From Sulfuricystis thermophila (GTDB taxonomy: Bacteria; Pseudomonadota; Gammaproteobacteria; Burkholderiales; Rhodocyclaceae): a DNA stretch of 32,000 nucleotides. Positions 5,732 to 23,749 of this stretch are shown piece by piece. The stretch is taken from the NCBI RefSeq assembly GCF_004323595.1, contig NZ_AP019373.1, positions 2,531,593 through 2,563,592 on the forward strand, read 5' to 3'. Position numbers and translations under genes: made by a program. A model generated the notes under the pieces. The model was not told the origin of the DNA and did no database searches. It was given only the letters and a program-made list of their open reading frames with translations. Each line of letters starts with the position of its first letter. Position 1 is the first letter of the stretch.

Positions 5732-6427
5732 TCAGAGGCTCATACAAACCGTGTAGGTGGCTGCAGGATCGACGGCCGTCGTACAAGCGGCCGGTGATCC
5801 TGCCACGGCACAGTGCGCCGTGTTCTGGCGAGTCGTTGGCGCGCCTGGCACCGCACGCATCGAACCGGTGAAAGGATTACCGTCATCCATCGTCGTATCG
5901 AGTTGCAGCACGAATTTGCCAAGAATACCCCTGGAACAGACGATGAAAGTGCCCGTCAAGCCGCTGATGTATTGCTGTGCAGGCGTGGCACTGCCTGACT
6001 CGATGCCGATGCGGCCGCCATCAGCATTGGTAGGGAAGTAGGACGGATCAGCCAAATTCGTTGGGCCGGAAGCCAGATTGGCAAGACGCACATGCTGCCA
6101 GAAAACCACACTTTCAGGCGCAGTCGCACTCACATCACTGGAGAACCAGTCTCCTTCGATGACCCCATTGCCAAGAGTGCCACCAGCTCCCGGCTGAGCG
6201 CCGGTGCCGAGATGAGCGGCAACGTTGGCATCGTCGCCGGGTAAAGCGCGAAATTTGTCCTGATAGCCGTAGATGAAGAGGGGAATGTTGCGGAAGTCCT
6301 GGGCAAAATTTTTCACTTTGGCGCTGTTGATCAGTTCTTGACCCTTCAGCACGCCGCCCAGCAGCAGGCCGATGATGACCAAGACGATGGCGATCTCGAC
6401 CAGGGTGAAACCGGCCTGTCTTTTCAT
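5732..6427 (-). CDS. prepilin-type N-terminal cleavage/methylation domain protein (type IV pilin / pseudopilin-like)
   Basis: ORF 5732-6502 trimmed to ATG 6425-6427, preceded by GGAG. N-terminus MKRQAGFTLVEIAIVLVIIGLLLGG is a class III signal (G|F cleavage site, Glu at +5). The rest is Gly/Ala/Thr-rich with C-terminal Cys residues. Confidence 0.75.
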   Translation of the reverse strand: MKRQAGFTLVEIAIVLVIIGLLLGGVLKGQELINSAKVKNFAQDFRNIPLFIYGYQDKFRALPGDDANVAAHLGTGAQPGAGGTLGNGVIEGDWFSSDVSATAPESVVFWQHVRLANLASGPTNLADPSYFPTNADGGRIGIESGSATPAQQYISGLTGTFIVCSRGILGKFVLQLDTTMDDGNPFTGSMRAVPGAPTTRQNTAHCAVAGSPAACTTAVDPAATYTVCMSL

Positions 6428-6466
6428 TGTATTTGCTCCACCAAAAGTCATAGGCAAGTCAGAAAA

Positions 6467-9973: not shown

Positions 9974-10762
9974 ATGGAAGACGCACTGATCATCGCTGGC
10001 AAGGCATATCGCTCGCGCCTGTTGGTCGGCACCGGCAAATACAAGGATTTCGACGAGACGAGACGCGCCATCGAAGCCTCTGGCGCCGAGATCGTCACCG
10101 TGGCGATCCGCCGCACCAACATCGGCCAGGACCCGCAGCAGCCTTCGCTGCTCGATGCCCTGCCGCCTTCGAAGTACACCTATCTGCCCAATACCGCCGG
10201 CTGCTACACGGCCGAGGAGGCCATTCGCACGTTGCGTCTGGCGCGCGAGCTGCTCGACGGCCACAGCCTCGTCAAGCTCGAAGTGCTCGGCGACAAGGAA
10301 ACGCTGTTCCCCAACATGCCGGAAACCCTGAAAGCCGCCGAAATTCTCGTCAAGGAAGGTTTCCAGGTGATGGTCTATTGCTCCGATGACCCGATCCAGG
10401 CAAAGCTGCTGGAGGAGATCGGCTGTGTGGCGGTGATGCCGCTTGCATCGCTGATCGGTTCCGGCATGGGCATCCTCAACCCTTGGAATCTCTCACTCAT
10501 CATCGAGAAGGCCAAGGTGCCGGTGCTGGTCGACGCGGGTGTTGGCACGGCGTCGGATGCCGCGATCGCGATGGAATTGGGCTGTGATGGCGTGTTGATG
10601 AACACGGCGATCGCCGGGGCGAAGAATCCGGTGTTGATGGCTGCCGCGATGAAGAAGGCCGTCGAGGCCGGCCGCGAGGCCTATCTTGCCGGACGCATGC
10701 CGAAGAAGTTCTACAGCGCGAGCCCGAGCTCGCCGATGACCGGTCTGATCGGCGGCAAGTGA
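9974..10762 (+). CDS. thiG: thiazole synthase ThiG
   Basis: 262 aa. Characteristic LLVGTGKY...VTVAIRR...LPNTAGC...[11 protein letters not shown] sequence. Confidence 0.95.
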
Positions 10763-11250
10763 AGCGCTGCTGCTGCTGGGCACTCCCCTGGCTACTCGTC
10801 GTGATGCCGGCATTTGCCGACGAACCTGGCCTGTCGGCGGAGGGGTTGGTTCCGGTACGCCACGGCTATGCCTTCGAACAACCCGACATTCTCCTGCGCC
10901 AGCGCCTCTTCGGCCTCGCCCATGGCGTGCACCTGCTGCTCTCCGCCTGCCTCGACAAGCAGCTGAACGTTCAGGCGATAGAGCAAGCCTACGAGCAATG
11001 GCATACCGCGCAGGAACCGGCGATCGACGCGCTGCGCAATGCGCTCGCCGAACACCATTTTGGTGCCCAGGCGTCGCGTGCCGGCTGGCAGGACATCGCC
11101 CGTGTGCTGGGACTCAAGGAAACCATTTATCCCGCGCTCGGCACGGTCGGGCTGGAAGAGGCCTGTGCGACACTGCCGCTCGCCTTGACCCGACCCACCT
11201 ATGATTTCGTCACGCAACTCGGAATGACCGATGCAGCCCCCCAGCAATGA
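10759..11250 (+). CDS. hypothetical secreted protein
   Basis: GTG start overlaps the thiG stop (GTGA). N-terminal signal-like [20 protein letters not shown]. No recognisable domain. The 3' end overlaps the trmB start by 20 nt. Confidence 0.5.
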
Positions 11251-11947
11251 CGCCGCACCGCGGCATGCGCACATCCGCAGCTATGTACTGCGCCAAGGCC
11301 GTGTTTCGAATGCCCAGCAACGTCATTACGAAGAAGGCATGCCACGCTGGGGGATCCCCTATGCTGCCGCGCCGCTCGATCTTGCCGCTGTCTTCGGCCG
11401 CCATGCGCCGACGATTCTCGAAATCGGCTGCGGCATGGGCGAGACGACCGCAATCATTGCCGCTCATCATCCCGAGAGCGACTTCATCGGCATCGAAGTG
11501 CACACCCCGGGCGTCGGCAGCCTGCTGAAGGAAATCGCCACCCGCGGGCTGACCAACCTGCGGGTGATCCAGCACGATGCGGTCGAGGTAGTGCGCGACA
11601 TGATCCCCCATGGCTCGCTTTCCGGCATCCACGTTTTCTTTCCCGATCCGTGGCCGAAGAAGCGCCACCACAAGCGGCGCCTGATCCAGCCGCCTTTCGT
11701 GCATGAGCTCGCGCTGCGCCTGATGCCGGGCGGCTATCTGCATCTGGCGACCGACTGGGAGGAATACGCGCAGCAGATGCTCGAGGTCTTGTCGGCCGAG
11801 CCCCTGCTCGAAAACACTGCCCAGGGCTTTGCGCCGCGTCCCGAGTGGCGGCCGCAGACCAAGTTCGAGCAGCGCGGCCTGCGCCTGGGGCATGGCGTCT
11901 GGGACGTGTTGTTCAGACGGCGAGAAACAGCGCAATCAGGCGATTGA
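11231..11947 (+). CDS. trmB: tRNA (guanine-N7)-methyltransferase
   Basis: [19 protein letters not shown] motif [10 protein letters not shown], and [15 protein letters not shown]: typical TrmB. Confidence 0.9.
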
Positions 11948-16426: not shown

Positions 16427-16455
16427 TTGCATTGCGTAGCTGACAAGCGCATAAT
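16427..16455 (+). promoter_or_regulatory. near-consensus sigma-70 promoter (TTGCAT-17 nt-CATAAT) abutting attL
   Basis: TTGCAT at 16427-16432, 17-nt spacer, CATAAT at 16450-16455. The predicted start site falls inside the 22-bp att repeat. It now points into the integrase gene. Confidence 0.5.
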
Positions 16456-16458
16456 TTT

Positions 16459-16480
16459 TGTGCACCCAAGTGTGCACCCA
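16459..16480. repeat. attL core (TGTGCACCCAAGTGTGCACCCA)
   Basis: Identical 22-mer recurs at 23728-23749. It is itself a tandem of the 10-mer TGTGCACCCA, and an inverted third copy (TGGGTGCACA) lies at 16503-16512. Confidence 0.8.
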
Positions 16481-16538
16481 GGGCATTTTTGGGGGGATTT
16501 TTTGGGTGCACATACCAATGCGCGAACAAGGAGGCGAC

Positions 16539-17822
16539 GTGGGCAATCTGACTGACATACAGATTCGGGACTGGATCAGGCGTGGTGAGCGTTTCGAGCA
16601 GCGAGGCGACGGCGACGGTCTTTATCTGCGATTCCGCAAGGCCGACGCGACGCCGAGTTGGATTTTTCGTTATCGGGTTGGCGGCAAGGCGAGAGCGATG
16701 GTCATTGGGCGCTACAAGACCCTGAGCCTGGCCGATGCGCGACGCACGGCGAAGGAACTGCGGGCGCGAGTCGCGCTTGGCTTCGATCCCGCCGGAGAAA
16801 AGCAGGAACGCAAGCGCGAGACGCTTCGCAAGATCGAGGAGGCCAAGCGGCGAATGACGGTCGGCGAGCTTGCCGACGAGTATTTCGCGGCGATGATCGC
16901 GGGCCGCTGGAAGCATCCCAATATCTGCCGGGCGCGGATCGAGCGGGACATCAAGCCCGCCATTGGGCACATTCCCATCGATGAGGTCAAGCCGCAGCAT
17001 ATCGACGATCTGCTAAAGGGAATCGTCAAGCGCGGAGCGCCGACGATGGCGAATGACACGCTGCGCTGGTGCAAGCGCATCTTCAATTACGGCATCAAGC
17101 GGCAGCTATGCCAATTCAATCCCGCTGCGCCGTTCGACGTGACCGACGCGGGCGGTAGAGAGGAGCCCCGCGACCGTTGGTTGACGCGCGAGGAATTGAC
17201 GGCGTTGTTCGCGGCGATGCGCGTGGCAAAGGGTTGGAATACGCTCAACACCTACGCGGTAAAGCTGCTGCTGATGCTTGCCTGCCGACGCGAGGAGCTT
17301 ATCGCGGCGCGTGTTGCCGAATTCGATCTTGATGGCGCGGTGTGGCACCTGCCCGGCTCGCGCACCAAAACTGGCAAGGCCATTGACATTCCGCTGCCGA
17401 GGCAAGCCGTGGTGATCCTGCGCGAGGTGATTCGATTTGGCGGGGATTCGGCTTGGCTTTTCCCTGCCCGCAAGATGCAATTGCGCATGACCCCGCATAT
17501 CGACCTGAACACGGTCGGAGCCGCTCTGAACAAGCACATTCGGCCTGCGCTGAGGAAGCGGGGCATTCCCGATTTCACTGTGCATGATTTCCGGCGCACG
17601 GCGCGAACGCACTTGGCCGCGCTTGGCGTTGAACCCTACGTGGCCGAGCGATGCCTGAACCATTCCATCAAAGGTGTCGAGGGAATTTACAACCGCCATG
17701 ACTTTTTCGATGAGCGGCGCGTAGCCCTGCAAAAATGGGCCGACCTGCTAGAGCGGCTTGAAAACGGCGGCGCGGAGGTGATCGACTTCCAGAAAATCGG
17801 CAGGCAAGGCCGGGCAGTCTGA
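16539..17822 (+). CDS. int: tyrosine recombinase, P4-type integrase (DUF4102 arm-binding N-terminus)
   Basis: N-terminus LTDIQIRDWIRRGERFEQRGDGDGLYLRFRK...WIFRYRVGGK. C-terminal catalytic HDFRRTARTHL and GIYNRHDF. GTG 16539 is preceded by AAGGAGG at 16527-16533. ATG 16518 is the alternative start. The track start 16458 lies inside att and is rejected. Confidence 0.85.
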   Translation: MGNLTDIQIRDWIRRGERFEQRGDGDGLYLRFRKADATPSWIFRYRVGGKARAMVIGRYKTLSLADARRTAKELRARVALGFDPAGEKQERKRETLRKIEEAKRRMTVGELADEYFAAMIAGRWKHPNICRARIERDIKPAIGHIPIDEVKPQHIDDLLKGIVKRGAPTMANDTLRWCKRIFNYGIKRQLCQFNPAAPFDVTDAGGREEPRDRWLTREELTALFAAMRVAKGWNTLNTYAVKLLLMLACRREELIAARVAEFDLDGAVWHLPGSRTKTGKAIDIPLPRQAVVILREVIRFGGDSAWLFPARKMQLRMTPHIDLNTVGAALNKHIRPALRKRGIPDFTVHDFRRTARTHLAALGVEPYVAERCLNHSIKGVEGIYNRHDFFDERRVALQKWADLLERLENGGAEVIDFQKIGRQGRAV

Positions 17823-18020
17823 CTTTCCGTCGGAGAATCAGGCGGTTAGACCCATTGCCTGCTCGCAGGGGCAGGCACTATATCTAGTAGGCCGCAACGT
17901 CACGCGCACTAGGCGAAACCGTAACCCATTGATTATTCAACGGGTGAAATTTTTTCCTTTGAGGTTTCGTTACGTCGCTATACGATTCGACCAATCGCAT
18001 GGCTTCGTCATGCGAGAGGT

Positions 18021-18054
18021 GCAGACCAGGGACGTGGCCGCGTCCCTGGTCTGC
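18021..18054. other. perfect 14-bp-stem GC-rich hairpin in the int-alpA spacer
   Basis: GCAGACCAGGGACG-tggccg-CGTCCCTGGTCTGC. No flanking T-run, so it could be a terminator/insulator or a protein-binding palindrome. Confidence 0.5.
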
Positions 18055-18206
18055 AAACGACGTCCGGCAGCCGGAAGCCGTTGCGTTGGATGCGTCTCCC
18101 ATACGCACGGCTAGGATAGGTCTAGCAACGCTAAGAAGTCAACACTTGTTACCACTTCCCACCACCTATCCCCTACCGGCTGCCATTGCAGAAAAGGAGC
18201 ATTGCA

Positions 18207-18479
18207 ATGGCATACATTCGCATCAATCAGATTGCTGAACGACTCGGCGGCATCCATCAATCAACCGTCTGGCGCAAGCTGAGCACCGATCCCAGAGCGC
18301 CAAAGGCAGTCAGGCTTGGATCGAGGCTAACAGTTTTCGACGAAGCCGAGGTCGAGCGTTGGATTGCTGGCCTGGTCGAGGCGGCGCGACGCAATCCCGC
18401 ACCAAGGAAGCTACCGGATACCGACGCCATTCGGCGCGGCGCGGCTACTCGCAAAGCTCTGCGGCAAGCTGCCAAGTGA
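18207..18479 (+). CDS. alpA: AlpA family phage regulatory protein / excisionase-like HTH
   Basis: MAYIRINQIAERLGGIHQSTVWRKL...PKAVRLGSRLTVFDEAEVERWI matches the AlpA/MerR-type winged HTH pattern. AAGGAG lies 9 nt upstream of ATG 18207. Confidence 0.75.
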   Translation: MAYIRINQIAERLGGIHQSTVWRKLSTDPRAPKAVRLGSRLTVFDEAEVERWIAGLVEAARRNPAPRKLPDTDAIRRGAATRKALRQAAK

Positions 18480-18491
18480 CGGAGGCGGGCC

Positions 18492-18641
18492 ATGACTACG
18501 CAAACAAAATGCCGTGGGGCGGGCACCCGCACGGCAAGAAAGAATACTGAGCGGCACGATTATCGCGCGTTTCTGACCGTCAAGCCAAGCCGCATCGAGC
18601 GCAGGCAAAAGCGCTGCTGGCGGAAAGGAGCGCGGCGATGA
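18492..18641 (+). CDS. hypothetical 49-aa highly basic protein (not in the ORF track)
   Basis: ATG 18492 is preceded by GGAGG (18481-18485). The stop overlaps the next start as ATGA. 17 of 49 residues are Arg/Lys. The Arg-richness could also be a high-GC artefact. Confidence 0.4.
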   Translation: MTTQTKCRGAGTRTARKNTERHDYRAFLTVKPSRIERRQKRCWRKGARR

Positions 18642-18901
18642 ATCCTCTTCCGAAAATGACGAGCGATTTGCATCGTGTCGGCGGCGGTTATTCCGTTCAG
18701 TTTGACACCCGATCCGGCGTGCTGCGCTGCGAGTGGACACCATCTGTTCCAAGCCCGCGCGACCTGCGGCGGAAGGTGGATATGCGCAAGTATGAGGCGG
18801 CGCGTGACGCCTTTTGCGCTGAACTGGCGCGGCGTGTCTTTCCGGGCGTTCAGTCGCCTGCTGTGGTGATTGTCGCGGAGGAGATCAAAAATGACGAATG
18901 A
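18638..18901 (+). CDS. hypothetical protein (87 aa)
   Basis: AAGGAG upstream. The 3' end overlaps the primase-helicase start by 11 nt. No recognisable motif. Confidence 0.5.
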   Translation: MNPLPKMTSDLHRVGGGYSVQFDTRSGVLRCEWTPSVPSPRDLRRKVDMRKYEAARDAFCAELARRVFPGVQSPAVVIVAEEIKNDE

Positions 18902-21632
18902 CCCCATCGAATCCTTCCGCGCTGCAATCGAAGCCGCCGGCCTGACCCCGCCGAGCGTCATCGAGCCCGATGGCCGACTGCACCGGTTCGGCACCAACGG
19001 CAAGCCCGGCGATGACGCGGGATGGTATCTCTTCCATGCCGACGGAATACCCGCCGGCGTATTCGGCGACTGGCGCACAGGCTTGCAAACGACCTGGAGG
19101 GCGACCGCCGAGCGGCGCTTGTCGCCATCGGAAAACGCTGCGCTGCGCGTCAAGCTGCGGCAAATGCGCGAGACCCGCGAGGCCGCCGAGCGTGCAGGGC
19201 AGGAAGAGGCCGCGAAACGCGCCGAGGCGATATGGGCGGCATCGGCCCCGGCGACCGAGGCGCACGGATATCTTGCGCGCAAAGGAATCGGGCCGCACGG
19301 CGCTAGGGTGATCCAGTCGGGCGATTGCGCGGGATGGCTTGCGGTTCCGATGCTCTCTATCGATGGCAAGTTGTGGAACATCGAGCGCATCGCCCCGGAA
19401 AAGCCCGCCGACGGTAGCACCGACAAGAAGGGGCTTTTTCATGGCCGGCGCACAGGATGCTTCTATCTGCTCGGCAACATCGAAGGCGCAAAGGCGCTGC
19501 TGATCTGCGAGGGGTTCGCGACTGGCGTATCGCTTCATGAGGCGACCGGCCTGCCCGTGGCCGTGGCCTTCAATGCCGGGAATCTTGAGCCTGTGGCCGC
19601 GGTGCTGCGGTGCAAGCATCCCGGCCTGCCGATGCTGATCTGCGGCGACGATGATTGGCGCACTCCCGGCAATCCGGGACGCGCCAAGGCGCAAGCTGCG
19701 GCGCGAGCCGTCGGCGCGGCGGCGGTGTTCCCGATATTCGCCGGTGAGCGCGGCGAGAAGCAGACCGATTTCAATGACCTGCACCAAGCCGAAGGGTTGG
19801 AAGCGGTGCGGCGCATCATCATGCCTGCTGTCGCGGCGCTGACCGGGCAAGGCGAGCCGCAAGCGCCGAAGGCTGCCGCCGAAGTCGACGCTGCATCGGG
19901 CTGCCCCTTCCCCGGCGAAGAATCCCGCCCATGCTTCGTCGTGCTGGATGAATGGACGGAGTGGCAGGGCCGGCGCTGGCGACCCGGCACCTATTACTGT
20001 GGCGTGGCAAGGCCGAAGAAAGATGACGCCCCGGCGACGATGTTCGAGGAATGGTTTTGCTCGCCGTTGCACGTCGAGGCCGTTACCCATGACGATAGAG
20101 AAAGCAATTTCGGTAGAAGGTTGCGGTTCAAAAACAGTCTGGGCAGGTGGCGAACGTGGGCGATGCCAATGGAACTGCTGCGCGGAAGCGGTGAGGAATT
20201 GCGCGGCGAGCTTTTGGCGATGGGTGTCGAGCTTGACCCGGCGAAGTCGCGCAGTTATCTGCCTGCCTATCTGCAATCGCGAACCCCGACCCGGCGCATG
20301 CGCTGCGCCATGCGCACGGGATGGGCAGGCAAGTCTTTCGTGCTGCCCGACGAGGTAATCGGGCCGGATGCCGCTGGCGTGATTTTCCAGAGCGGCGAGC
20401 GCGGGCACGATGAGCACACGCTAGCCGGGACGCTGGAATCCTGGCGGGCCGAAGTCTCGGCGCTGGCGCGTGGCAATCCCCTGCTGACGCTGGCGATTTC
20501 TGGCGGATTCGCCGGGCCGATGCTTGCGCGATGCAACGCCGAAGGTGGCGGACTGCACTTCGTCGGCGATTCAAGCACCGGCAAAACGACGCTGCTGCAA
20601 GCGGCTTGCTCGATTTGGGGCGGGCCGAATTACCGGCGAAGCTGGCGGGCGACCGCGAACGGTCTCGAAGGCGCGGCGAGTCTGTTCAATGACTGTCTGC
20701 TTGCGCTGGACGAAATCTCCGAGGCCGACCCGCGCGAAGTCGGGCAAATCGTTTATGCCGTCGCGAACGGTTACGGTAAGCAAAGAGCATCACGCACCGG
20801 CGCGGCGCGGAGCGTGACGCGCTGGCGCTGCTTTCTGCTGTCGAGCGGTGAGCGCAGCATCGAGACTACGATGAACGAAGGCGGGCATCGGGCCAAGGCC
20901 GGTCAAAGCGTGCGACTGTTGAATGTTCCCGTCGCGCGGGAATTTGGCGCATGGGACGACCTGCACGGCGCGGCATCCCCGGCGGCATTCGCCGATGCCA
21001 TCAAACGCGCGGCGGCGGCGCATCATGGCCGCGCCGGTCGAGCCTTTCTGGAAAGGCTGACCCATGACGAGCGCGACTTTTGCGCCCTGCTCGAAGAGGT
21101 CAAGGGGCTTCCCATGTTCGCGGCGGAAGGCGGCGAAGGTCAGGAAAAGCGGGCCGCTGCGCGGTTCGCGCTGATCGGTCTCGCCGGTGAGCTTGCGACC
21201 GAGTATGGCCTGACTGGATGGGCCGAAGGCGAGGCCATCGATGCGGCGGCGCTGGCTTTTGGCTTGTGGCGATCCATGCGCGGCAGGGGCAACGACGAGC
21301 GGCGACAGATCGCCGAGCAGGTTTCCGCATTCCTTGAGCGGCACGGCGACGGGAGATTCTCGGATGCCGACGCGCCTACCGATATTGCAATTCGGGATCG
21401 AGCAGGATGGTGGCGCGACGAGCAGGGGAGTCGCATCTATCTGTTCACGGCGGAAGCGATGCGCGAAGCGCTGCGCGGTTTCGACCTCCGACGCGCATTG
21501 GACGTGCTGCAAGAGCTTGGTGCATTGCCTGCGCCAGACGGCGACGGAAAGACCGCGCATCGGTTCAGGATCGGCGGGCGGCGCATGCGGCTTTACGCCA
21601 TCAATCCCGACAAGCTGGAAGTCGCGCAATGA
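18891..21632 (+). CDS. bifunctional primase-helicase (Toprim domain + DUF927/SF3-like Walker NTPase)
   Basis: ATG 18891 is preceded by GGAGGAG. Toprim segment ALLICEGFATGVSLHEATGLPVAVAFNAGNL...LICGDDD...DFND. Walker A is GDSSTGKTT and Walker B is LLALDEISEA. This architecture is typical of island/satellite replicases. Confidence 0.8.
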   Translation: MTNDPIESFRAAIEAAGLTPPSVIEPDGRLHRFGTNGKPGDDAGWYLFHADGIPAGVFGDWRTGLQTTWRATAERRLSPSENAALRVKLRQMRETREAAERAGQEEAAKRAEAIWAASAPATEAHGYLARKGIGPHGARVIQSGDCAGWLAVPMLSIDGKLWNIERIAPEKPADGSTDKKGLFHGRRTGCFYLLGNIEGAKALLICEGFATGVSLHEATGLPVAVAFNAGNLEPVAAVLRCKHPGLPMLICGDDDWRTPGNPGRAKAQAAARAVGAAAVFPIFAGERGEKQTDFNDLHQAEGLEAVRRIIMPAVAALTGQGEPQAPKAAAEVDAASGCPFPGEESRPCFVVLDEWTEWQGRRWRPGTYYCGVARPKKDDAPATMFEEWFCSPLHVEAVTHDDRESNFGRRLRFKNSLGRWRTWAMPMELLRGSGEELRGELLAMGVELDPAKSRSYLPAYLQSRTPTRRMRCAMRTGWAGKSFVLPDEVIGPDAAGVIFQSGERGHDEHTLAGTLESWRAEVSALARGNPLLTLAISGGFAGPMLARCNAEGGGLHFVGDSSTGKTTLLQAACSIWGGPNYRRSWRATANGLEGAASLFNDCLLALDEISEADPREVGQIVYAVANGYGKQRASRTGAARSVTRWRCFLLSSGERSIETTMNEGGHRAKAGQSVRLLNVPVAREFGAWDDLHGAASPAAFADAIKRAAAAHHGRAGRAFLERLTHDERDFCALLEEVKGLPMFAAEGGEGQEKRAAARFALIGLAGELATEYGLTGWAEGEAIDAAALAFGLWRSMRGRGNDERRQIAEQVSAFLERHGDGRFSDADAPTDIAIRDRAGWWRDEQGSRIYLFTAEAMREALRGFDLRRALDVLQELGALPAPDGDGKTAHRFRIGGRRMRLYAINPDKLEVAQ

Positions 21633-21652
21633 TCCGCCCATCTTCATTTTTG

Positions 21653-21901
21653 CGTGTCCCACGTGTCCCACGTGTCCCATTGCCCGGAAACCCGCATCAA
21701 ATGGGCATTTCGGGAAATCGAGGCCGGGACACGTGGCCCTGTCCCAATGTGTCCCACGTGTCCCGGCTGCTGGTTGGAGCGTATCAGGTGGGACACATGG
21801 GACACGTCGACATTTTCGAGGTGTCCCGCCCCCGTCTGCCCGGAAACCCGCATCAAATGGGCATCTTCGCGAGGTGGGACACATGGGACACGTGGGACAC
21901 C
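21653..21901. repeat. iteron array, putative island origin of replication
   Basis: 12 perfect copies of GTGTCCC/GGGACAC plus one TGTCCCA variant. Forward triplet with 9-bp period at 21653-21679 and reverse triplet at 21875-21901. 28-bp perfect direct repeat TGCCCGGAAACCCGCATCAAATGGGCAT at 21681-21708 and 21837-21864. 12-bp inverted repeat CCGGGACACGTG/CACGTGTCCCGG at 21724-21735 and 21755-21766. Confidence 0.7.
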
Positions 21902-21965
21902 GAAAAAAATCAAAGTCGAGAGTTTTGGGTGAGTTGCAACCTGATCAGACTGGCGGAGGTGCCGA

Positions 21966-22280
21966 GTGTCGATTGAATCGTTGCTGGCGACTTTGAAATC
22001 ACGGAACCCCGGCGCTGGCGAGACGGGCACGGGGGCGCTGGACAAGCTGCGCGAGGCGGCGCAGGGCATCCGTGCGCCCCTATCCGGGCCGCATCCCGAC
22101 GGCGCTATGTCCCTGCACGTCGACCCCAGGCAACAGCGGCTCATTGATCTGGCCGAAGGGCGCGGCATCGAGGTGCTCCGGACGCTGGGCCGATTGGTGG
22201 TGATTACCGGCGGCGCTGCCGATCTGGTGGCGCTGGTTGAGGAGGCGCAATCTGATGACGAGGTGAGGCATGGCGCTTGA
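21966..22280 (+). CDS. hypothetical protein (104 aa)
   Basis: GTG start preceded by GGAGG (21955-21959). First gene of a four-gene overlapping set. No recognisable domain. Confidence 0.5.
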   Translation: MSIESLLATLKSRNPGAGETGTGALDKLREAAQGIRAPLSGPHPDGAMSLHVDPRQQRLIDLAEGRGIEVLRTLGRLVVITGGAADLVALVEEAQSDDEVRHGA

Positions 22281-22530
22281 AAAGCTCACCCAACCCGTTG
22301 AAGGCGAACTCATTCCCGCGAGCCGGACGGGATACTCGCGCCGACCGAGCCTTGGCACGGCGCGCGGCGTTCGGCGCGAACTGGCGTCGGTTTACCTCGA
22401 ACTTAGACGCGGTGAAATCGACGAGCGCCACGCGACGAGCGCCGCTTACTTGCTGCGCTGCGTGCTCGAATCAATCCGGCTTGACGAGATTGAGCAACGT
22501 TTGACTGCACTAGAGGAGACCCGCCGATGA
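22270..22530 (+). CDS. hypothetical protein (86 aa) with C-terminal coiled-coil-like segment
   Basis: ATG overlaps the upstream gene by 11 nt. The sequence RRELASVYLELRRGEIDERHATSAAYLLRCVLESIRLDEIEQRLTALEE resembles small phage-associated helical proteins, which is an impression only. Confidence 0.5.
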   Translation: MALEKLTQPVEGELIPASRTGYSRRPSLGTARGVRRELASVYLELRRGEIDERHATSAAYLLRCVLESIRLDEIEQRLTALEETRR

Positions 22531-22748
22531 ACGTAGCTGCTTTGCTGAGGCGCATTGCGAGACTTGAAGCCAAAGCCGATGACGAATGGCTGATCTACAC
22601 CCACGAGCGCGAGGAGCCCGACGGTTCCCTGACGTTGTTGAACGACCGCACATTCGACGGCGAGCCGATTGAGGTCGCGCGCATCCCGGCGAACGAGGTC
22701 GAGCGGCACCGGCGCACCGTGATCCGCATCGAGCGGAGTCACCCGTAA
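22527..22748 (+). CDS. hypothetical protein (73 aa)
   Basis: ATGA overlap with the upstream stop. AGAGGAG lies 8 nt upstream. No recognisable domain. Confidence 0.5.
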   Translation: MNVAALLRRIARLEAKADDEWLIYTHEREEPDGSLTLLNDRTFDGEPIEVARIPANEVERHRRTVIRIERSHP

Positions 22749-23131
22749 TGGCCTGTTCGCAGTTGCTGACCGAATACCTTGGCGAAGCGGCTGCAGCCAG
22801 GCTGTGCGCGGCACTCGGCGGCTGCCAGATCAAAATCCCCAAGCGGCGCGATGGCGTATGGTGGGCGCGGCTTGTCGAGGCAATCGGCGAGCGCGATGCC
22901 GAGGAGCTTTGCCGCATCTTCGGCGGCGAGAGCATCTACATCCCGCGCAATGCCGCATCGGGCCGCGAGGAGTTGCGCCGCCTGGTGCTGCGCCGCCTGG
23001 CCGCCGGTGAGACTTTCGCCGAGATTGCCCGCAGTCTGGAATTCCGCGTGCGCTACTCGGAGCGCGGGTTGAGGAAGCTGGTGGCGGGACCGGGCAACGG
23101 TGCGTTACTGAGTAACGGCGCGAGGGATTGA
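22748..23131 (+). CDS. Mor-like transcriptional activator (Mu middle operon regulator family-like)
   Basis: TAATG overlap with the upstream gene. Contains FGGESIYIPRN (the Mor signature is GGxxxYIPR) preceded by a degenerate copy GGCQIKIPKR. This is followed by an HTH-like AAGETFAEIARSLEFRVRYSERGLRKLV. 127 aa versus 129 aa for Mu Mor. Confidence 0.55.
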   Translation: MACSQLLTEYLGEAAAARLCAALGGCQIKIPKRRDGVWWARLVEAIGERDAEELCRIFGGESIYIPRNAASGREELRRLVLRRLAAGETFAEIARSLEFRVRYSERGLRKLVAGPGNGALLSNGARD

Positions 23132-23135: not shown

Positions 23136-23355
23136 CGGGCGGATCCGGCGCATGATCTGCGCACGGTGCTAGTCACACCAAATCGAAAGCGGCAGGCCGC
23201 CCCGATAGCGTGGCTTTGTTGCGTCTGTGGTTTGCCCTTTCAATGGGCGGATGCGCCATATCGTGAGGTATGGCGGCACGGCTTTCGACGTGTGACTAAC
23301 ATCCGCCCACCCCCGCTCGTAAACGGGCCAATAGACCTACGAAAGGAGCAATCTC

Positions 23356-23532
23356 ATGAGCACCAAGCAATCCTCCCATTACGCCATCGGCCAAGCGCTA
23401 GTCGAGCCCTACTCAATCATGCTGGAAATCCGGCCAATCGGCCTGACGCTGGAAGAATTCCGGGCCGACCTGCCGAAGCTGTTAGCCCGTCTTGAAGAGC
23501 TAATCGCAGCATCGAATGACCGGCGCACCTGA
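23356..23532 (+). CDS. hypothetical 58-aa protein (below the ORF-track size cut-off)
   Basis: ATG 23356 is preceded by AAGGAG (23343-23348). About 71% G/C at third codon positions by hand count. Sequence MSTKQSSHYAIGQALVEPYSIMLEIRPIGLTLEEFRADLPKLLARLEELIAASNDRRT. Confidence 0.55.
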   Translation: MSTKQSSHYAIGQALVEPYSIMLEIRPIGLTLEEFRADLPKLLARLEELIAASNDRRT

Positions 23533-23598
23533 GCCCCCGGCGCCGGTAGGACGGCACGAACCGCGACTGGCTCACATACTGAGAAATAGTGTGAAACT

Positions 23599-23617
23599 GG
23601 CGCGAGGGATTGACCGC
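23599..23617. repeat. 19-bp direct repeat copy 2
   Basis: Identical to 23117-23135 and immediately followed by the island terminator. Confidence 0.7.
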
Positions 23618-23624
23618 GACCCCG

Positions 23625-23649
23625 AACCCGGCGCTTGCCGGGTTTTTTT
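23625..23649 (+). terminator. rho-independent terminator at the island right end
   Basis: AACCCGGC-gctt-GCCGGGTT stem followed by TTTTTTT. Confidence 0.75.
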
Positions 23650-23727
23650 CTGGCGAGGCTGCCGCTTGGCGGCGCTGGGGATTGGTGGCATCATGCAGAC
23701 GGAGCTACCCGCCAAGCCCTGATTTTG

Positions 23728-23749
23728 TGTGCACCCAAGTGTGCACCCA
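23728..23749. repeat. attR core (TGTGCACCCAAGTGTGCACCCA)
   Basis: Perfect copy of 16459-16480. Confidence 0.8.

Follow-up and report, generated by a model that had tools for sequence, protein, structure and literature searches.

The stretch of DNA analyzed here, 32,000 nucleotides of the Sulfuricystis thermophila contig NZ_AP019373.1 (positions 2,531,593 to 2,563,592; hereafter the window), contains a 7.27-kb integrated island, one gene of which, ORF4, has a close counterpart in a group of uncultured phages. We assign a probability of about one half to the reading that this is a satellite-like island ending in a variant of its candidate helper's own Mor-type DNA-binding protein, in the style of the P4 satellite, whose delta protein is a homologue of Ogr, the late activator of its helper P2. 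Under such a scheme, the particular group of temperate, lambdoid-organized siphophages from which ORF4 was taken would be the likely helper; the island protein would bind the same DNA sites as its phage counterpart, and it would switch on or retune the morphogenesis genes of the helper, much as P4 delta acts at the Ogr-dependent late promoters of P2. It is from the comparisons and the analogy set out below that we infer the satellite lifestyle of the island, the identity of its helper and the transcriptional target.

ORF4 is the fourth of four small genes that, judged by their sequence and position, constitute the accessory, post-replication operon of this phage-satellite-like island:

21966..22280, plus strand: ORF1, 104 amino acids, variable chimeric cassette gene (comparison with sibling island L007; singleton cluster)
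22270..22530, plus strand: ORF2, 86 amino acids, hallmark protein of the island family (20 close homologues; profile search; AlphaFold2 model)
22527..22748, plus strand: ORF3, 73 amino acids, N-terminal LLRRIxxLE helix and small C-terminal domain, coupled to ORF2 via ATGA
22748..23131, plus strand: ORF4, 127 amino acids, Mor/C-family DNA-binding protein of phage origin (Pfam, PHROG, AlphaFold2)

An earlier note, made from the letters of the window alone, had proposed that these four genes form a translationally coupled module for manipulating a helper phage. The genes are present on the plus strand as it described them, with overlaps of 11, 4 and 1 nucleotides, the last two of which read ATGA (ORF2/ORF3) and TAATG (ORF3/ORF4), and each start codon (GTG in the case of ORF1) is preceded by a plausible, purine-rich Shine-Dalgarno sequence (GGAGG, GAGGTGAGG, GGAG and GGAG for ORF1, 2, 3 and 4, respectively). 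All four have a coding-like GC1-high/GC2-low/GC3-high pattern (e.g., 0.75/0.49/0.76 for ORF1). Relative to the sibling island L007, the ratio of nonsynonymous to synonymous divergence (dN/dS) is 0.20–0.35 for ORF2 to ORF4, indicating purifying selection, and for ORF2 it is 0.05 relative to a more distant island (range for this gene, 0.05–0.26). The earlier note was also right in that ORF1 to ORF3 can be placed in no known family (no match in Pfam, PHROG, NCBIfam or PADLOC), and in that the genes occupy a satellite-like position, i.e., downstream of a primase and putative origin in an integrase-AlpA-primase island that is bounded by attachment (att) repeats and is devoid of structural genes. 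That ORF1 to ORF3 manipulate a helper is suggested by this position. Among GenBank phages, there is no significant match for ORF2, ORF3 or ORF4.

ORF4 and its phage counterpart

A word-indexed search of 5.8 billion proteins for relatives of ORF4 returned nine clusters. The closest copy (89% identical) belongs to L007, and the next closest is a phage protein, P0003, which is 83% identical over residues 7–114 and is encoded between the large terminase (TerL) and Portal_Mu genes of seven uncultured phage contigs (L001-L006 and L008). The link to a specific phage, at which the earlier note could only hint, thereby gains a concrete counterpart. ORF4 is 83% identical to the copy in phage L001, versus only 36–59% between the L001 copy and those of other phages of the group; at the nucleotide level, island and phage are 79% similar, over positions 22766–23088 only. 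In a neighbor-joining tree, the island copies (from the window, L007 and L016) form one clade nested inside the phage copies. Judged by these comparisons, ORF4 is a gene that was copied from the phage group into the islands. Between the non-coding DNA of the island and the phage, shared 11-mers occur at chance level.

The two repeated units of ORF4 (see below) are identical to those of the L001 protein at 27 of 31 and 27 of 32 positions, and the helix-turn-helix (residues 89–114) is identical in island and phage; because of this identity, ORF4 should bind the sites of the phage protein. Helix 69–88 matches its phage equivalent at 11 of 20 positions, and a helix signature, LRRLVL(R/Q)RL, is present in three of three island copies and in no phage copy. 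The tails of island and phage proteins are unrelated: those of the phages are long, acidic and variable, and the island proteins end 6–40 residues earlier (total lengths of 122–132 versus 133–173 amino acids).

A possible alternative is that ORF4 is a decoy, i.e., a dominant-negative or competing form that, having no C-terminal tail, occupies the same sites or enters mixed oligomers and so delays or blocks the late functions of the helper, to the benefit of the island or its host. All three island copies are short-tailed and bear the helix signature next to an unchanged helix-turn-helix, and satellites that strike at the late activator of their helper are known: PtiA of the pathogenicity islands found in Staphylococcus aureus (SaPIs) acts on the helper's LtrC. 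The likeness of ORF4 to PtiA/PtiM is conceptual only, extending to a satellite module aimed at a regulator of helper late genes; PtiA binds LtrC without being homologous to it and comes from a Gram-positive host, and there is no relationship between the proteins. According to a study of the family (10.1101/2025.05.02.651988), the C-termini of Mu Mor and C help to build the active tetramer, such that loss of the tail could matter. However, the phage tails are themselves so variable that its loss may be neutral, and no PADLOC defense family is matched; the decoy explanation strikes us as unlikely.

Profile searches place ORF4 in the Mor/C family: it scores 39.6 bits against Pfam Mor (PF08765; cut-off 24.9), in two stretches, and matches phrog_836 ('late transcriptional activator') with an E-value of 7.5e-20 over residues 6–106. 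Proteins of this family are characterized by an N-terminal helical dimerization domain, a beta-strand linker with the motif GGxxxYIP and a basic C-terminal helix-turn-helix (10.1101/2025.05.02.651988). The linker motif FGGESIYIPRN, which, along with a helix-turn-helix-like C-terminus and a Mor-like length, had led the earlier note to call the gene Mor-like, lies at residues 58–68, and the degenerate second copy seen at the same time (GGCQIKIPKR, residues 24–33) is part of a real tandem duplication of 35 amino acids. Residues 6–36 align to residues 41–71 with 12 of 31 positions identical and an ungapped score of 49, a value reached by none of 2,000 shuffles (12.8 +/- 6.0). In the AlphaFold2 model (mean predicted local distance difference test score, pLDDT, of 75.5), a helix-helix-strand unit occurs twice and is followed by a helical C-terminal domain; both linker motifs include predicted strands (residues 62–64 in FGGESIYIPRN and 27–29 in GGCQIKIPKR), with helices at 37–46 and 48–58 before the linker and at 69–85, 90–94 and 105–113 after it. 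Residues 73–98 also give weak matches to HTH_23 and GerE, and the extra helix-helix-strand unit at residues 2–29 is atypical for Mor/C. By its profile, linker motif, N-terminal helices and C-terminal helix-turn-helix, ORF4 is, at the level of sequence, a member of this family.

The Mor-like similarity proposed in the earlier note thus stands on profiles (Pfam and phrog_836), and the comparison of structures, made with Foldseek on the AlphaFold model, is statistically weak. The top PDB entry is Mu protein C (9l0x_H; not significant, E 4.8, template modeling score 0.31–0.36), and the best viral model, a 'Mor-like transcription factor' from Achromobacter phage Mano, is a weak match (E 0.12, probability 0.96, template modeling score 0.43). 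When run against PDB sequences, the ORF4 profile does not reach Mor or C, and the only match among GenBank phages at E <= 10, gp6 of EBPR siphovirus 4, is weak and was not used as evidence. Relative to Mor and C of Mu (PF08765; PDB 1RR7 and 9l0x), with which it shares the GGxxxYIP linker, the N-terminal helices, the C-terminal helix-turn-helix and a length of about 130 amino acids, ORF4 differs in the tandem duplication of its N-terminal helix-helix-strand unit, and in that genes of its type reside in the terminase-portal block of non-transposable siphophages or at the end of island operons.

Two further islands bear on this last point. L016 has another backbone, with a PrimPol-PriCT-DUF3987 primase and no homologue of ORF2 or ORF3, and ends with a copy that is 72% identical to ORF4; and L019, an ORF2-type island in a Thiocapsa metagenome-assembled genome (MAG), has at its end a canonical, non-duplicated Mor gene (10554–10907; 36.4 bits in Pfam). 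Mor-type genes are therefore recurrent terminal members of such operons. The gene that precedes the Mor-like gene in L016 (3159–3539) encodes 126 amino acids with an HGGxSTGPxTxEG-type motif and has a single, weak family match, to an unnamed PHROG. In L019, the Mor gene stands just ahead of an apparent tRNA-derived attachment region.

If the island were instead a helper-independent integrative element or a decaying remnant, ORF4 would control the genes of the island itself, and ORF1 to ORF3 would be unrelated cargo. This would accommodate an island whose dependence on a helper is deduced rather than observed, which has no packaging genes, which holds orphan genes in two cassette slots, and whose ORF2-type relatives in many cases do without a Mor gene. 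We nonetheless regard it as improbable: the helix-turn-helix (residues 89–114) is identical to that of the phage protein, island backbones that are unrelated to one another again end in a Mor gene, ORF2 to ORF4 are under purifying selection, and int, alpA, the primase gene and both att sites are intact.

The candidate helper and the role of ORF4

Downstream of P0003, the phage contigs encode a Mu-F protein, a scaffold-like protein, capsid proteins of the lambda D and E types and a siphovirus tail module. Their upstream regions contain a CI-type repressor (helix-turn-helix plus Peptidase_S24), a RusA-like resolvase, a lysozyme and a small terminase (phrog_1206), along with replication genes that specify either a DUF1376 protein or a PrimPol primase and an SF1 helicase. 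There is no transposase in the available stretches of these partial genomes, which extend up to 10 kb upstream, and the only 'Mu-type' parts are the portal and the Mu-F protein. By gene content, these are uncultured temperate siphophages of lambdoid organization and not Mu-like transposable phages.

The earlier note had taken the Mor-like gene as a hint of a Mu-like (transposable) helper and had thought this combination undescribed. Such a helper would seem natural in that the Mor family was defined in Mu and the domains Portal_Mu, Phage_Mu_F and Mu_Gp36 occur in the related phages, and there is a precedent: PmCI172, a phage-inducible chromosomal island (PICI), has a published Mu-like helper (PMC6092414), which also means that a Mu-like helper as such would not be new. 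The phages that carry the ortholog are of another kind, however, since the CI/S24 repressor, DUF1376 or PrimPol and helicase, RusA, lysozyme, small terminase, lambda E/D-type capsid and siphovirus tail, together with the missing transposase, all speak against transposition; a Mu-like helper is accordingly very improbable.

The position of the Mor-like gene within the phages is fixed. Scanning IMG/VR with the portal protein recovered 12 further relatives (portal 59–75% identical), all 12 of which have the order TerL, Mor-like gene, portal, and in most of the phages (L001, L035, L038, L039, L040 and others) the start of the Mor-like gene overlaps the TerL stop codon. At the terminase-portal junction, L001-L006, L008 and L033-L044 all keep a Mor-family gene whose N-terminal unit is duplicated.

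This fixed coupling to TerL raises another explanation, namely that the Mor-fold protein is a packaging factor, serving in site recognition or as an accessory of terminase or portal, and that the island uses its copy to steer the helper terminase onto its own DNA, as SaPIs do with their small terminase. ORF4 is, after all, the sole sequence common to island and phage, and the island has no recognizable packaging gene. Apart from synteny, on which this explanation is built, the evidence points elsewhere: the phages have a small terminase of their own (phrog_1206), and the alignment of the shared gene contains neither a pac-like block nor a conserved non-coding or synonymous-site block that would hint at a pac site, nucleotide conservation following the conserved amino acids only. 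Moreover, all characterized members of the Mor/C family are transcription activators (10.1101/2025.05.02.651988), and we give a role in packaging a low probability.

With respect to the sites at which a phage regulator might act, a dyad, TGAAC-N2/3-GTTCA, precedes the scaffold/capsid operon in the phages by about 50 nucleotides (L001 6394–6405 and equivalents). It is exact (TGAAC-N2-GTTCA) in L001-L006, L008 and L037, takes the form GAAC-N2/3-GTTC in L034-L036 and is degenerate in L043 and L044; the intergenic region of L001 in which it is found (6250–6442) holds TGAACACGTTCA. This dyad could be the site of an activator or other phage regulator, and the Mor-like protein is a candidate for binding it.

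Several observations weigh against a delta-like role of ORF4 in a satellite. The dyad is absent from the island and from the window, and within the phages the Mor-like gene belongs to the packaging/head operon, where a late activator would not usually be found. Outside of ORF4, island and phage have no similar DNA, and the likeness of the model to Mor/C structures falls short of significance (E 4.8 and 0.12). The island yielded no small terminase, no capsid-remodeling gene and no pac or cos site, and of the ORF2-type islands whose right end can be seen, most have no Mor gene (L013, L015 and L023), because of which we regard ORF4 as an accessory rather than a core part of the module. Finally, the island is known here from its sequence, and a helper phage, induction, packaging or an effect on transcription is yet to be seen. 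Co-occurrence in samples is uninformative, in that the phage-type and island-type copies come from different sequencing runs.

Returning to the reading that ORF4 acts in the style of P4 delta, the parallel extends to several features of the proteins. The island, like P4, holds a diverged copy of a regulator of its presumed helper, from the same family and with the DNA-recognition part kept, and P4 delta consists of two Ogr-like units in one chain, to which the tandem duplication in ORF4 is comparable. In contrast, ORF4 is a Mor/C helix-turn-helix protein whereas Ogr is a zinc finger; the duplication in ORF4 covers the helix-helix-strand unit only and is already present in the phage protein; and activation by ORF4 is proposed by analogy.

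Satellite logic and the Mor/C activator family are each already known. What is new is their combination, as well as the duplicated Mor subfamily with its fixed place at the terminase-portal junction and the island families represented by ORF2 and ORF3; full-text literature searches found no published description of a satellite with a Mor-family gene. If the reading is correct, the principle embodied by P4 delta and Ogr would also hold for the Mor/C family and for environmental Rhodocyclaceae, and the helper of a satellite would be predictable from sequence alone, because the regulator of the island is 83% identical to that of one particular lineage of uncultured phages. It is, furthermore, an unusual arrangement that a whole temperate phage group should have, between terminase and portal, a Mor-type gene whose N-terminal unit is duplicated.

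Anatomy and setting of the island

The att-flanked island is inserted between yicC and gmk-rpoZ-spoT, and its order is attL, integrase, AlpA, Toprim-DUF927 primase, iteron origin, ORF1 to ORF4, attR. Besides the four ORFs, its features are the following:

16437..16480, unstranded: attL, left flanking direct repeat with core GTGCACCCAAGTGTGCACCCA, just past the yicC terminator (repeat search)
16518..17822, plus strand: tyrosine integrase (Pfam Arm-DNA-bind_3, Phage_int_M and Phage_integrase)
18207..18479, plus strand: AlpA-family excisionase/regulator (Pfam Phage_AlpA, 33.9 bits, cut-off 21; match to phrog_66)
18638–18901: small conserved ORF that precedes and overlaps the primase-helicase gene
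18870..21632, plus strand: primase-helicase with Toprim_3 (Pfam, E 7e-11) and DUF927 (E 1.5e-96)
21647..21907, unstranded: origin-like iteron region (direct and inverted repeat families found by repeat search)
23158..23625, plus strand: second variable slot, after ORF4 (blastn alignment to L007 stops at 23157 and starts again at 23626)
23624..23645, plus strand: terminator-like hairpin and T-run at the end of the plus-strand genes of the island (9-bp stem with 6 GC pairs, TTTTTCTGGCG tail)
23706..23749, unstranded: attR, right flanking direct repeat, directly upstream of gmk (repeat search)

The repeat search puts the two att repeats 7269 nucleotides apart. The GC content of the window is 63%, gmk is identified by a match to Pfam Guanylate_kin, and the YicC and RpoZ proteins encoded on either side form clusters, at 90% identity or higher, with those of Sulfuricystis multivorans and of Rhodocyclaceae MAGs. 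The integrase, for which an alternative start at 16458 is possible, is 96% identical to that of L007 and 77–79% identical to those of L009 and L015, all of which are at the same site; L007 itself is a sibling island, 96% identical and likewise at yicC|gmk. Because scans for tRNA genes and for Rfam families found none in the window, the att site does not lie in a known RNA gene. The yicC|gmk spacer is an integration hotspot of this integrase clade (the island in the window, L009 and L015), in that it is occupied, in separate Rhodocyclaceae genomes, by three distinct islands whose primases also differ.

The iteron region (260 bp) is about 99% identical in L007 and contains at least three copies of the 9-bp GTGTCCCAC or its complement GTGGGACAC, arranged in blocks of inverted orientation, as well as two exact copies of a 28-nucleotide direct repeat, TGCCCGGAAACCCGCATCAAATGGGCAT. 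Because of its position directly 3' of the primase gene, this region is read as a putative origin of replication. Several long spurious ORFs cross it.

Synonymous divergence from L007 differs between modules, at about 0.11 in the primase gene (18891–21629) versus 0.27–0.30 in ORF2 to ORF4 (22270–23128). This gap suggests that the accessory module has a history different from that of the replication module, the island then being a mosaic produced by recombination.

Architecturally, the island is of the PICI type and of the type of the related minimalist islands, the PICMIs. It shares with these an integrase, an AlpA protein, a primase/replicase next to an origin, and a dedicated chromosomal site marked by att repeats (PMC6092414, PMC10803314), along with small accessory genes that follow the primase gene and the lack of structural genes (no structural or lysis gene among its ORFs in Pfam, PHROG or NCBIfam); its size of 7.3 kb compares with about 6 kb for PICMIs. 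It is unlike them in its host (Rhodocyclaceae), in its site (yicC|gmk rather than fis) and in its accessory genes, which belong to the uncharacterized ORF2 and ORF3 families and to the Mor type, and its dependence on a helper is a prediction from sequence features. None of its ORFs matches the terS, rpp, ppi or capsid-morphogenesis families (Pfam, PHROG, NCBIfam, PADLOC), and PICMIs are similarly without genes for hijacking of packaging (PMC10803314). Of the genes typical of P4-like satellites (psu, delta, sid, alpA, integrase and the P4 alpha primase), the island has only integrase and AlpA: there is no PHROG or Pfam match to Psu, Sid, Ogr/Delta or P4 alpha, the primase being of the Toprim+DUF927 type. 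By gene content, then, the island has the architecture of PICI/PICMI satellites and is not P4-like.

Between the integrase gene and alpA, the minus strand contains an ORF of 74 amino acids (17884–18108) with a sigma-70-like promoter match at 18142–18113. It matches no family, no gene is called at the equivalent place in L007, and it might be a small regulator or spurious.

ORF2, ORF3 and the variable slots

In contrast to ORF4, which is accessory, ORF2 marks a wider family of islands. It has 20 close homologues, and every context examined is an island with an integrase, an AlpA or HTH_17 gene and a primase; the primases of these ORF2-type islands have DUF927, DUF3631 or DUF3987 domains, and the hosts are Rhodocyclaceae, Methylococcus and Thiocapsa. 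An exhaustive profile search yielded 809 representative clusters at E <= 0.001, nearly all of which are 80–110 amino acids in length, and scans of genomes and of metagenomes returned only three and five loci, respectively; a scan of IMG/VR found none. In the AlphaFold2 model of ORF2 (pLDDT 83), the N-terminus is basic and disordered, and a helical hairpin predicted with confidence follows (helices 31–46 and 52–85); for this model, Foldseek retrieved generic helical hairpins only. Its profile has no match in the PDB, and among 56 distant relatives none falls into a PHROG or a meaningful Pfam family. A comparison of ORF2 to the phage small terminase by hhalign detected no relation.

ORF3 has orthologues in L007, L015, L018 and L020. 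In all of the islands, the gene or genes that follow ORF2 (frequently two paralogues) encode a common N-terminal amphipathic helix, M..LLRR(I/L)xxLE, joined to differing C-terminal domains, and by this conservation ORF2 and ORF3 are the operon core of the wider island family. The ATGA coupling of the two genes and the matching heptad-like helices at the C-terminus of ORF2 and the N-terminus of ORF3 suggest a complex with exchangeable specificity domains: the two proteins perhaps form a coupled pair in which the C-terminal helix of ORF2 is joined to the LLRRIxxLE helix of ORF3, and the changeable C-terminal domains of ORF3-type proteins would supply target specificity. Either family is a candidate for new satellite functions, and both could serve as markers for finding integrase-AlpA-primase islands.

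Taken further, ORF2 and ORF3-type proteins could define a widespread, unrecognized family of minimal satellites in Beta- and Gammaproteobacteria, which would hijack their helpers via a coiled-coil adaptor and for which the Mor-fold protein would be a terminase/portal-coupled part of the helper, copied to capture control of packaging or of the capsid operon. The adaptor may be modular, with the ORF2 hairpin pairing with interchangeable LLRRIxxLE-helix proteins. We hold this extension to be rather doubtful, and, if true, it would give the Mor fold a new role and satellites a new hijacking logic.

Other cargo can follow the ORF2 and ORF3 genes, as with the HicA/HicB toxin-antitoxin pair of L023 (7143–7873). 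In L009, an ISL3-family transposase is inserted after these genes (10446–11750).

The contents of the operon vary at both of its ends. Around ORF1, identity between the window and L007 is about 99% across the putative origin and the first 13 codons, after which the two are unrelated until the Shine-Dalgarno sequence of ORF2. The conserved post-primase protein that other islands have at this position begins in a TubC_N-like manner and contains the motif WLLH.DREP; of this protein, ORF1 retains only the N-terminal MSIESLL..SR (its first 13 residues) and GAGET. ORF1 forms a singleton cluster and, by these comparisons, is a swapped, chimeric and exchangeable cassette and not a conserved member of the module. 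In the second slot, L007 has an unrelated gene of 130 amino acids, and the window has an ORF of 58 amino acids (23356–23532) with a good Shine-Dalgarno sequence; the latter is again a singleton cluster and has no match in Pfam, PHROGs, NCBIfam or PADLOC. At the ORF1 position of L007 (5764–6213) and L023 (5508–5924), the reading frame runs through another group of short DNA repeats, which give rise to the peptide repeats VSGVSGV and TPDTPDTP in the sibling islands, and this stretch is deleted in the ORF1 of the window.

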